NCBI GenBank assembly: GCA_965248825.1
Contig: CBDFKL010000006.1
Span: forward strand, 1,293,095 to 1,357,094
DNA from: Alphaproteobacteria bacterium
Lineage (GTDB): Bacteria > Pseudomonadota > Alphaproteobacteria > UBA828
Length of the DNA: 64,000 nucleotides
Direction of reading: 5' to 3'
This document shows, piece by piece, positions 31,661 through 38,331 of this stretch (its first letter is position 1; every line of letters starts with the position of its first letter). The position numbers were made by a program, and so were the translations under genes. Under the pieces are notes generated by a model. It was given only the letters and a program-made list of their open reading frames with translations. It searched no databases and was not told where the DNA came from.

Positions 31661-33271
31661 ATGGCACGAGGGCGAAAGAAGAAACCGAAATCCGATGCCG
31701 GAATGACGCAAGGCGCCCACGGCGCTACGACCGGCCATGAGGCCGAGCTGTGGCGCATGGCCGACGCTCTGCGCGGCTCGATGGATGCAGCCGAATACAA
31801 GCACGTCGTCCTCGGGCTGATCTTCCTGAAATACATCTCCGACGCCTTCGAGGAGCGCCACGCGGCCGTTCTCGCCGAATGGGGTGCGGACGCCGCCGAA
31901 GACTGCGACGAGTACCGCGCCGAGAACATCTTCTGGGTGCCGCCCGAGGCCCGCTGGACGCATCTCAAGGCTCAGGCAAAGCAGCCCATCATCGGCCAGC
32001 TCGTCGACGACGCGATGGCCGGCATCGAGCGCGACAATCCGGCGCTCACGGACGTGCTGCCCAAGGATTACGCCCGCCCCGCGCTCGACAAGCAGCGGCT
32101 CGGCCAGCTCATCGACATGATCAGCAACATCAAGGTGGGCGACGAGGAAGCGCGCTCCAAGGACGTGCTCGGCCGCGTCTACGAATATCTCTTGTCGCAG
32201 TTCGCGAGCGCCGAGGGCAAGAAGGGCGGCGAGTTCTACACCCCGCGTTGCGTCGTCAAGCTCCTGGTCGAGATGCTGGAGCCCTTTCAGGGCCGGGTCT
32301 ACGACCCCTGCTGCGGCTCCTCCGGCATGTTCGTGCAGTCGGTCGAGTTCATCCAGGCGCACGCCACCGGCAACGGCAATGGCGGAAGGGTTCCCAGGGG
32401 CGCCAAGGCCGATATCTCGATCTACGGCCAGGAGTCGAACTACACGACCTGGCGGCTCGCGAAGATGAACCTTGCCATCCGCGGCATCGAGGGCCAGATC
32501 GCCCACGGCGACAGCTTCCACAACGACCGCCACCCTGACCTCAAGGCCGACTTCGTCCTCGCCAATCCGCCGTTCAACGTCTCCGACTGGGGCGGCGAGC
32601 GGCTCGCCGAAGACAAGCGCTGGCAGTACGGTACCCCGCCCAAGGGCAATGCCAACTTCGCCTGGGTGCAGCACATCGTCCACCACATGTCGCCGGCCGG
32701 CGCGGCCGGATTCGTGCTCGCCAACGGCTCAATGTCGTCGAACCAGTCGGGCGAAGGCGAGATCCGGAAGAGCCTGATCGAGGCGGACCTAGTGGACTGC
32801 ATGGTCGCCCTTCCCGGCCAGCTCTTCTATTCCACCCAGATCCCCGCCTGCCTGTGGTTCCTCACCCGCGACCGGCGCGACGGCACGTTCCGAAACCGCC
32901 GTGGCGAGGTACTCTTCCTGGACACCCGCAAGCTCGGCCGCATGGTCGACCGCACTCACCGCGAATTGACCGATGAGGACATCGCCCGCATCGCCGGCAC
33001 CTATCACGCGTGGCGCGGCGAGGAAGGCGCGGGCGAGTACGCCGACATTCCCGGTTTCTGCAAGAGCGCGCCGCTCGACGAGGTACGCAAGCACGGCCAC
33101 GTGCTCACACCCGGCCGCTATGTCGGCGCGGAGGCGCAGGAGGACGACCGCGAGCCGTTCGAGGAGAAGATGAAGCGGCTCGTTGCGCAGTTGAGGGAGC
33201 AGCAGGCCGAGAGCGTAAACCTCGACGCCACCATCGCTGCCAATCTCAAGGAGCTGGGGTATGGCGGCTGA
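31661..33271 (+). CDS. hsdM: Type I restriction-modification system DNA methyltransferase subunit HsdM
   Basis: Contains the N6-adenine MTase catalytic motif NPPF (…[12 protein letters not shown]…), the SAM motif …[12 protein letters not shown]…, and the N-terminal HsdM_N domain (…[32 protein letters not shown]…). Confidence 0.9.
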
Positions 33272-34496
33272 GTGGTACCAAACTACTTTGGATCAGCTCG
33301 GGCGCATAGTGACCGGAAAGACACCGCAATCCCGTCATCCTGAGTATTTCGGAGGCGAGATACCATTTGTTACTCCCACAGACTTCGACGGACGCAGGCG
33401 CATTGAGACCACCAAACGTTGCCTGACCGAGCGAGGCGCATCTGCGGTTCGCGGCGCTCGAATACCGAGGGAGGCGATCATGGTTTCATGCATCGGCTCG
33501 GACATGGGGAAAAGCGCAATTGCCGGCACGGCGTGTGTAACAAATCAACAGATTAATAGCGTTGTCGTGGAATCTCCAAACTGTCCTCTGTTCGTTTACT
33601 ACAACTTGAGTATGCGAAAGGAAGAGATCCGGGCAGCCGCTGGTGGATCAGCTCAACCGATTTTGAATAAATCCACCTTTGGGCAATTGGACATCCTCTT
33701 GCCCCCAATCCCCGAACAGCGGGCCATCGCCCACGTCCTGGGCACGCTGGACGACAAAATCGAGCTGAACCGGCACATGAACGAGACGCTGGAGGCAATG
33801 GCCCGAGCGCTGTTCAAGTCCTGGTTCGTCGATTTCGACCCCGTCCGCGCCAAGATGGAAGGCCGCGACCCCGGTTTGCCCCGACATCTCGCCGATCTGT
33901 TTTCTGATCGGCTTGTTGAGTCCCAGCTTGGGGAGATTCCAAAAGGGTACAAATGGTGTTCCGTTTCGCATTTTGCAGAAATTCGGGGAGGAAAGCAGCT
34001 ATCCAAAAATGATTTCACTCAAGATGGACCATACCCAGTATTTGGAGGTGCTGGACTAATGGGACACACCGACAAGTTCAACGCGGATGGATATGTCATT
34101 TCCGTGGGTCGTGTCGGAGCCTACTGCGGTCAGTTTTTTTCTCACCGTGGAAAGTGTTGGATTAACAACAATGCGTCGTTTCTTCAACAAAACGACGGGG
34201 TTTTTGGAGAGTGGTTTCTGCTAGCGTTGAAACACCTTGATATAGACCTTCTCAAGAAAGGTGCGGCGCAACCCTTCATTTCAAATTCCGATTTGGCAGC
34301 GATGGACGTGATGTATCCTGGAGAAGAAATCCTATTCGCGTTTCATCGCATTGTTTCGAACCTCTTGCGACGCGCGGAAGTTACTGAACGGGAGACAGAG
34401 CGACTCATCGCCCTTCGTGAAGGTCTTCTGCCCAAGCTGATTTCTGGTGACCTCCGCGTGACGGATGTCGACGCCTTCCTCAAATGGACGCTATGA
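33261..34496 (+). CDS. hsdS: Type I restriction-modification system specificity subunit HsdS
   Basis: It overlaps the hsdM stop by 11 nt. There are two target-recognition halves separated by a conserved central helix (…[45 protein letters not shown]…) and a C-terminal helix (…[15 protein letters not shown]…). The second TRD is conspicuously AT-richer than the rest of the locus. Confidence 0.85.
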
Positions 34497-38100: not shown

Positions 38101-38331
38101 GTCAAGGTGTTGGGCGACGACACTCTGCGAGACATCGCCCGCGAGCTGGTCGAAACCGTACGCGGCAACGTCACCATCGACTGGACGCTGCGCGAGAATG
38201 TGCGGGCAAATCTCCGCCGGTTGGTCAAACGCATCCTGCGCAAGCACGGCTACCCGCCGGACAAGCAGGAGAAGGCGACGCGGACGGTGCTCGAACAGGC
38301 GGAGGTGCTCTCCGCCGGCTGGGCCGTCTGA
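35191..38331 (+). CDS. hsdR: Type I restriction-modification system endonuclease/helicase subunit HsdR
   Basis: 1046-aa protein. The N-terminal nuclease region (…[17 protein letters not shown]…, PD-(D/E)xK-like), the SF2 helicase Walker A (…[13 protein letters not shown]…), DEAH (…[11 protein letters not shown]…) and the C-terminal HsdR helical domain are present. Confidence 0.9.

Follow-up and report, generated by a model that had tools for sequence, protein, structure and literature searches.

A type I restriction–modification operon with an embedded predicted HEPN abortive-infection gene between hsdS and hsdR

We analyzed a 64,000-nt stretch of contig CBDFKL010000006.1 (assembly GCA_965248825.1, Alphaproteobacteria bacterium), here called the window, and found on its + strand a type I restriction–modification (R-M) operon in which a predicted abortive-infection gene of the HEPN class, here called abi, is embedded between hsdS and hsdR. 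This arrangement is already known, and the value of the locus lies mainly in being a clean and compact example of it. By comparing related loci we observed that the hsdS–hsdR junction is a slot for interchangeable defence cargos, one of which is abi. The C-terminal module of its product, which by profile and predicted fold is homologous to small acidic phage proteins, is the only part of the finding from which something new might come.

A four-gene operon with an embedded Abi_C gene

A preliminary description of this DNA, made from its letters and a list of its open reading frames (ORFs), had reported a type I R-M operon with an extra gene between hsdS and hsdR. We recovered the four + strand ORFs at exactly the positions given there (31661-33271, 33261-34496, 34484-35194 and 35191-38331; 536, 411, 236 and 1046 aa in operon order), and the reading of them as such an operon was confirmed by matches to Pfam and PADLOC models. 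The features are listed below, with residues of the embedded protein numbered from its probable start at 34493 and structural statements taken from an AlphaFold2 (AF2) model.

31661..33271, + strand: hsdM, type I R-M methyltransferase subunit, 536 aa (Pfam N6_Mtase 1.1e-106, HsdM_N 3.1e-28; PADLOC MTase_I 1.6e-222)
33261..33271, + strand: overlap of the hsdM stop and the hsdS start, 11 nt (ATGGCGGCTGA at the junction, also given as TATGGCGGCTGA)
33261..34496, + strand: hsdS, specificity subunit with two target-recognition domains (TRDs), 411 aa (Pfam Methylase_S 2.4e-30, two stretches; PADLOC Specificity_I)
~33261-33680, ~33680-33860 and 33860-34496, + strand: within hsdS, TRD1, the central conserved region, and TRD2 with the C-terminal region
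34493..34496, + strand: overlap of the hsdS stop and the probable abi start, ATGA, 4 nt (GCTATGACTG)
34493..35194, + strand: abi, embedded gene for a solo AbiJ/Abi_C-type HEPN protein, 233 aa (longest ORF, from 34484, 236 aa)
34493..34987, + strand: HEPN domain, residues 1 to ~165, all helical in the model
34847..34873, + strand: predicted catalytic motif R119-N120-QCGFAS-H127 (RNx6H; codons cgc 34847-34849, aac 34850-34852, cac 34871-34873)
35000..35158, + strand: C-terminal module of a helix, a beta hairpin and two helices, residues ~170-222, modelled at a local confidence (pLDDT) of 83-96, followed by an acidic tail to 35191
35191..35194, + strand: overlap of the abi stop and the hsdR start, ATGA, 4 nt (CCATGAGAG), a predicted translational-coupling junction
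35191..38331, + strand: hsdR, restriction/translocase subunit, 1046 aa (Pfam HSDR_N 6e-46, SWI2_SNF2 1e-77, T1R_D3-like, T1RH-like_C 8e-135)

The PADLOC models for the type I methyltransferase, specificity subunit and restriction endonuclease all match operon genes, the Specificity_I models spanning residues 1-407 of HsdS. HsdR reached 567.8 bits against NCBIfam TIGR00348 (cut-off 284.55) and combines an N-terminal nuclease domain (HSDR_N), a superfamily 2 translocase (SWI2_SNF2/ResIII) and a C-terminal helical domain (T1R_D3-like, T1RH-like_C); the nearest solved structure, EcoR124I HsdR, matched it at only 2.6e-31. By its domain content the system is a complete type I R-M system, with predicted methylation and restriction activity at a bipartite target site. 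Because each of the four ORFs matches both Pfam and PADLOC models, we regard them as real genes and not as chance ORFs of GC-rich DNA.

The abortive-infection identity that had been proposed for the extra gene was borne out by profile searches. Pfam Abi_C (PF14355) scored 56.7 bits against a cut-off of 24 (E 2.7e-15; model positions 1-82 of 83, residues 77-159 of the 236-aa ORF), and the PADLOC AbiJ model matched at 6.5e-8, aligning only over its positions 173-279 of 281 (residues 51-164 of the same ORF). An 18-residue segment that the preliminary description had quoted as the Abi_C core (residues 49-66 of the 236-aa ORF) proved to be real and highly conserved, but it is an N-terminal HEPN helix that lies just before the Abi_C match and inside the PADLOC AbiJ match. 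The protein has no other Pfam domain, no NCBIfam model and no ATPase match in Pfam, PADLOC or NCBIfam, and sequence and profile searches of the PDB with the whole protein returned nothing. Its family comprises 1825 matches in clusters of 90% identity, and 145 clusters at 50% identity were found with E<1e-30; the homologues are uniformly ~220-240 aa long, and among the matches listed 240 of 240 carry PF14355.

In alignments of 30, 72 and 100 homologues (26-85% identity) we observed that R119 and H127 never vary, with N120 conserved in at least 90%; the residues invariant down to 26% identity are E34, C56, R119, H127, S197 and Y208. An AF2 model from the shallow 30-sequence alignment was unusable (pLDDT 54) and was replaced by one from the 100-sequence alignment (pLDDT 87.9, predicted template modelling score 0.73), with helices at residues 13-20, 24-39, 41-62, 73-82, 95-122 and 138-161. 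The five best matches of this model in a Foldseek search of the PDB are all HEPN proteins, with target-normalised template modelling scores of 0.72 for 2hsb (probability 0.98), 0.67-0.68 for 3o10 and 0.47-0.51 for 4nqf, and the modelled fold is a HEPN-like four-helix up-and-down bundle. Taken together, because of the Abi_C score, the R-N-x6-H motif and the HEPN-like model we assign the protein to the solo AbiJ-type HEPN proteins, and by homology to SadR, an Abi_C protein of Staphylococcus aureus, and to other HEPN proteins it is a predicted ribonuclease (RNase).

Four other assignments were rejected. AbiJ proper does not fit since the N-terminal domain of that protein (AbiJ-NTD, types 1-5) is absent and the embedded protein opens directly with HEPN helices, and the anticodon nucleases PrrC and RloC do not fit since the 233 aa contain no N-terminal ABC-type ATPase (AAA_13). 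For HEPN-MNT or another HEPN toxin–antitoxin (TA) pair, no adjacent cognate antitoxin gene was found. The last is that the gene encodes an accessory domain, whether fused or split off, of one of the two neighbours HsdS and HsdR. A domain commonly fused to either neighbour had been named in the preliminary description, next to the lack of any Abi match, as the outcome that would speak against its identification; neither was found, the protein being a separate ~230-aa family in all homologues and absent from most sister loci.

The genes had also been described as overlapping at every junction, by 11, 13 and 4 nt. We observed an overlap at each junction and obtained the same three values with the longest ORFs, but the 13 nt between hsdS and abi stem from the longest possible ORF, and a second in-frame ATG lies at 34493. 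This ATG is the likely start of abi because the database copy of the exact protein has 233 aa (P0001), because the homologues all start at the aligned 'MAE...', and because the hsdS stop and the aligned abi start overlap by 4 nt in 18 of 32 related loci (and by 1 nt in 9 of the 32). The true overlaps are thus likely to be 11, 4 and 4 nt.

The hsdS–hsdR junction as a variable cargo slot

For comparison we used two sets of loci. A metagenome scan based on HsdR gave 80 loci with an HsdR 67-83% identical to that of the window, of which 48 show both hsdS and hsdR; a scan based on Abi, with one genome per species, gave another set of 80 loci. Of the 48 junctions in the first set, 7 carry this Abi family (6 at 56-67% identity and 1 at 34%), 5 are empty with a gap of 1-158 nt, and 36 hold other cargo that fills 0.6-7 kb. 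The preliminary description had asked whether orthologous R-M loci carry or lack the gene; most of these 48 lack it. Over both sets, 126 non-Abi ORFs in the slot fall into at least 70 clusters, mostly of defence families, and many ORFs belong to no family. Of the cargo ORFs of at least 100 aa, 82 of 92 lie on the operon strand. The recurrent cargos are as follows.

HATPase_c_4, often with Schlafen/AlbA_2 (7): 12 members
Kiwa KwaA/KwaB: 7-9 members
DUF3644 HEPN: 6 members
PADLOC candidates PDC-S05 and PDC-S23: 6 members each
Cytidine deaminases: 6 members
PrrC/RloC-like AAA_13: 5 members
RhuM: 5 members
Fic: 3 members
SIR2_2: 3 members
OLD/Gabija-like ATPases (AAA_15, AAA_21, DUF2813): 3-4 members each
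GmrSD_N: 2 members

Stacked cargos recur in the same order, for example KwaA-KwaB-Abi-Schlafen/ATPase in the two loci L034 and L046.

From these counts abi is one of many interchangeable defence cargos and not a core R-M subunit, and because most loci of the same subfamily are without the gene, the R-M enzyme does not need it. The preliminary description had taken the overlaps to mean that abi is an integral part of the operon and was not inserted later. This inference finds no support, given the content of the 48 junctions, the foreign base composition of abi described below and the behaviour of the other cargos, whose last ORF often overlaps the inferred hsdR start too, whatever its product. 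Since the junction is an exchange slot and other cargos often overlap hsdR as well, an overlap is no proof of integral membership. All the same, the 4-nt abi/hsdR overlap is a conserved feature, seen in 48 of the 60 related loci in which abi directly precedes hsdR, and an overlap of any length was seen in 53 of the 60. An earlier paper describes the hsdS–hsdR site as a potential hotspot of recombination (PMC12255303), and a view of the type I junction as an exchange slot was suggested also in the preprint of Payne et al. and in the work on TgvAB. The slot of this R-M subfamily is a natural library for 'guilt-by-embedding' discovery, its Pfam-negative cargos included.

Base composition in the window agrees with this. 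The GC content at third codon positions (GC3) is as follows.

hsdM 0.88; hsdR 0.87; flanking genes 0.85-0.88
hsdS: TRD1 0.56; central conserved region 0.85; TRD2 0.45; C-terminal region 0.56
abi 0.59

GC3 changes abruptly at the hsdM/hsdS and abi/hsdR junctions, with a value of at least 0.87 regained within ~60 nt of the hsdR start. Both abi and the TRDs of hsdS are thus of foreign composition in the window, in agreement with the cargo status of abi, and across 56 loci the GC3 of abi averages 0.11 below that of hsdM and hsdR and is never more than 0.1 above it. The sharpness of this mosaic over 33261-35194 suggests that both TRDs and the cargo were replaced by recombination via conserved anchors. 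At the central conserved region of hsdS (~33680-33830) we observed a host-like GC3 island of 0.85-0.90.

The Abi-based set is spread over more than 10 phyla (Acidobacteriota, Gemmatimonadota, Planctomycetota, several proteobacterial classes, Chloroflexota, Armatimonadota, Elusimicrobiota and others), with HsdM 55-88% and HsdR 63-86% identical across the loci. With two exceptions among the 80, abi lies, wherever the contig reaches, downstream of hsdS and upstream of an hsdR of the same subfamily. In the two exceptions, L039 (10001-14264) and L049 (860-3807), no hsdR was found within 3.6 and 2.3 kb downstream of abi, respectively, and these loci may contain more cargo, may have decayed or may have been rearranged. 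Because the identity of Abi correlates with that of HsdR and HsdM (Spearman rho 0.62 and 0.61, n=55), Abi appears to be co-inherited with them. The same order, hsdM-hsdS-'abortive infection family protein'-hsdR, occurs in the cultured Paraburkholderia sp. FT54 on a 30-kb RefSeq plasmid, which also bears several TA pairs. The 90%-identity cluster of the HsdM of the window (31661-33271) has 656 members on many contigs. This cluster, together with HsdM/HsdR identities of 55-88% over more than 10 phyla, points to a very wide and recent horizontal spread of the R-M subfamily.

The acidic C-terminal module and its phage relatives

Next to the HEPN domain, which is close to neutral, the C-terminal part of the Abi proteins is strongly acidic, with a mean net charge of -12 over 72 residues and of -11 in the protein of the window. 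The module in this part has the invariant residues D181, S197 and Y208; we found no Pfam family for it and no PDB relative by sequence or profile. Compared with the PHROGs database, the C-termini of 18 of 29 Abi proteins matched phrog_9396 (best 8.7e-7), 9 of 29 matched PHROG 37123 and 5 of 29 matched PHROG 9294. With a profile built from the Abi C-termini alone, a search of 24,573 ORFs gave six phage proteins with scores of 24-35 bits and E-values of 1e-5 to 1e-8, located at L162:1339-1737, L163:1396-1737, L164:1456-1707, L165:586-984, L166:553-768 and L167:496-837. A fold search against viral models (BFVD) independently returned the same phage family with a probability of 1.0, for example a protein of Pseudomonas phage PAO1_Ab17. 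From the profile and the predicted fold, the module is homologous to small acidic phage proteins.

The phage family comprises 1544 matches, nearly all of 58-160 aa and almost without Pfam annotation; the homologues of the module themselves belong to no Pfam family. The six proteins that we examined are very acidic (net charge -11 to -28, isoelectric point ~4.05) and have small unannotated genes as neighbours. Carriers include PAK_P3 (gp086), a Vequintavirus of the BASEL collection (Bas59_0104) and the T7-like Proteus phage 309, in which the protein is encoded by gene 4, 2.5 kb from the left end of the genome. A literature search on these PHROG identifiers and on PAK_P3 gp086 returned nothing relevant. 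The module is also found in a second lineage of ~220 aa in the hsdS–hsdR slot (L135:5604-6269 and L128:3516-4178), which is Pfam-negative, has an RNx3H motif (HDHRNEQYH / HEVRNGQYH) and is HEPN-like, with an hhalign probability of 89.6% against the Abi family.

The homology of the module to phage proteins is a testable handle on the silencing and triggering of antitoxin-less HEPN toxins embedded in R-M operons. One speculative reading, which we consider unlikely as a whole, is that the module is a previously uncatalogued domain and that the phage proteins are anti-restriction or early host-takeover factors which bind the type I enzyme or oligomerise via the module. The host HEPN protein would then use its own copy for docking or as a decoy, and the RNase would be unleashed once the phage protein arrived or the HEPN protein was displaced from the R-M complex. 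If this were true, the arrangement would be a guard mechanism that arose by capture of a phage domain.

Proposed role of the embedded gene, alternatives and surroundings

Solo AbiJ-family (Abi_C) HEPN proteins are enriched in R-M operons and have been read in a computational survey, by analogy to PrrC, as second-line defence (Anantharaman et al. 2013, PMC3710099). The layered defence that the preliminary description proposed has therefore already been published for this class, and for the present gene it is a predicted function. The embedded protein shares with the class its Pfam family, the absence of an AbiJ-NTD, the embedding in an R-M operon and the conserved R..H motif, while the acidic module with its phage homologues, the tie to one R-M subfamily and the variability of the slot are not in that survey. 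For SadR, RNase activity is established by experiment: its RNx5H residues are required to degrade RNA in vitro, and the protein prevents both infection by phages and transformation by plasmids (PMC13590631). With SadR and lactococcal AbiJ the embedded protein has in common the Abi_C/HEPN catalytic domain with an RN..H motif. These two proteins, however, have N-terminal domains of ~150 aa and a spacer of 5 residues (RNEYGDAH) and are not reported to be embedded in R-M loci, whereas here the extra domain is C-terminal and the spacer has 6 residues.

The EcoprrI type Ic locus has the gene order hsdM-hsdS-prrC-hsdR. As with abi, whose product is a predicted nuclease, the HEPN nuclease gene lies inside a type I locus, with hsdS on one side and hsdR on the other, but PrrC has an N-terminal ABC-ATPase regulatory domain and belongs to another HEPN family, and the HsdR of the window is distant from that of the type IC system EcoR124I. 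PrrC is an RNase that is held silent by the R-M enzyme and freed when a phage inhibits restriction (PMC3710099), and it is almost exclusively found embedded (Payne et al. 2024, preprint). In sister loci of the window, PrrC/RloC-like AAA_13 genes are alternative cargo of the same slot. For DarTG2 of enteropathogenic Escherichia coli, a position between hsdS and hsdR was stated explicitly, and TgvAB is embedded in Vibrio cholerae VPI-2; defence systems embedded in type I operons are also the subject of 'guilt-by-embedding' (Payne et al. 2024). DarTG2 and TgvAB resemble the present case in their same-strand embedding in a type I operon and in being read as layered defence. Their effectors are different, an ADP-ribosyltransferase TA pair and a GmrSD-like type IV enzyme, and were shown experimentally to work, whereas the embedded Abi is predicted from its sequence.

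The reading that we favour, and consider rather probable, is that the embedded gene encodes a HEPN RNase effector that acts as a second-line, RNA-targeting and growth-arresting defence, expressed from one transcript together with the R-M genes and coupled in translation to both hsdS and hsdR. The type I enzyme would attack unmodified phage DNA first; if the phage escaped or neutralised restriction, the HEPN nuclease would be released and would cut RNA, so that translation would halt in the infected cell. In favour of this reading are the Abi_C match with the conserved motif residues, the HEPN-like model, the precedent of SadR, the linkage, coupling and co-inheritance with the R-M genes, the annotated Paraburkholderia operon and the known defence genes in the same slot. 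The candidates for the off-switch are a PrrC-like control exerted by the R-M complex and autoinhibition or sensing via the C-terminal module, and our confidence is divided about equally between R-M-guarded and module-mediated activation. For control by the R-M complex speak the lack of a free-standing copy among the 80 Abi loci, the tight coupling to hsdR and the lack of an antitoxin gene, and it is favoured also because the AbiJ proteins without an N-terminal domain are those enriched in R-M operons (PMC3710099).

Several observations weigh against this reading. There are 7 residues between R119 and H127 (RNQCGFASH), which is beyond the canonical Rx4-6H. In the R-polar-X-H notation, the spacer ranges from 2 to 6 in Abi_C proteins (PMC13590631), and with 6 the embedded protein is at the top of this range. 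The Foldseek E-values against the PDB, 0.4-2 with a best value of 0.43, are not significant alone. A constitutively co-expressed RNase would have to be kept harmless, yet no antitoxin-like partner gene was found, as each gene runs into the next with an overlap and leaves no room for another same-strand ORF. The subfamily of abi is known from sequence and predicted structure alone. Systems that occupy comparable slots, TgvAB for example, function by themselves, and the exclusive linkage to one R-M subfamily could reflect an exchange of cassettes via the conserved hsdS and hsdR flanks instead of functional dependence.

An alternative that we regard as possible, if doubtful, is that abi is an autonomous abortive-infection or toxin gene which senses the phage itself, perhaps via its C-terminal module, and sits at a recombination hotspot for cargo that offers a ready-made operon. 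In favour of it, at least 70 unrelated clusters of cargo share the slot, some of them systems known to act alone (Kiwa, Gabija-like ATPases and GmrSD, for example); TgvAB, though embedded, protects even when the R-M genes around it are absent; the site itself has been described as a potential hotspot of recombination (PMC12255303); abi is of foreign composition in the window and has a lower GC3 across 56 loci; and its linkage to one subfamily is explicable by recombination through conserved flanks. Against it, no free-standing copy was seen among the 80 genome loci; PrrC is just as near-exclusively embedded and yet is controlled by the R-M enzyme; the 4-nt coupling to hsdR is strongly conserved; and AbiJ-type proteins that lack a sensor N-terminal domain are precisely the ones enriched in R-M operons (PMC3710099).

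It appears quite improbable that the product of abi is non-toxic and serves the R-M enzyme as an accessory or regulatory subunit, whose acidic module might dock onto the enzyme and modulate restriction or act as a decoy for phage anti-restriction proteins, with the HEPN part as a scaffold or binding domain. Such a role would suit the strongly acidic C-terminal part, its homology to small, very acidic phage proteins, the location of at least one of their genes at 2.5 kb from the left end in a T7-like phage, and the tight coupling to hsdR. Against it, the invariant catalytic R and H argue for a retained nuclease function, and the absence of the gene from most loci of the same subfamily indicates that the enzyme can do without it.

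R-M systems themselves act as addiction modules. That abi is an addiction module for post-segregational killing, which stabilises the R-M cassette and is not directed against phages, can scarcely be credited, although HEPN proteins are frequent toxins of TA systems (PMC3710099) and the same operon occurs on a plasmid with several TA pairs, since the overlapping genes leave no ORF as an antitoxin candidate and R-M systems already give addiction unaided.

Finally, we inspected the surroundings of the operon. Within 31300-38700 no sigma-70-like promoter was found, terminator-like matches showed no clear excess (10 against 5.7 +/- 2.6 in shuffles), and none lies 3' of hsdR on the + strand. There are no direct or inverted repeats flanking the cassette as insertion marks and no tRNA in the window. 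Apart from the R-M cassette the neighbourhood is metabolic, with no integrase, transposase or tRNA seen adjoining. The genes on either side are of the housekeeping kind. Upstream, the genes for hydantoinase A and B end 106 nt before hsdM, and downstream a convergent gene for an OYE-like flavin oxidoreductase ends 25 nt past hsdR. Further downstream lie genes for a ComF-like protein with a double zinc ribbon and a phosphoribosyltransferase domain (41435-42202) and for a CN-hydrolase (42227-43087). A hairpin at 34174-34197 with a stem of 8-9 bp (CGTCGTTTCTTCAACAAAACGACG), within the low-GC part of hsdS that codes for TRD2, is terminator-like on both strands and probably fortuitous.

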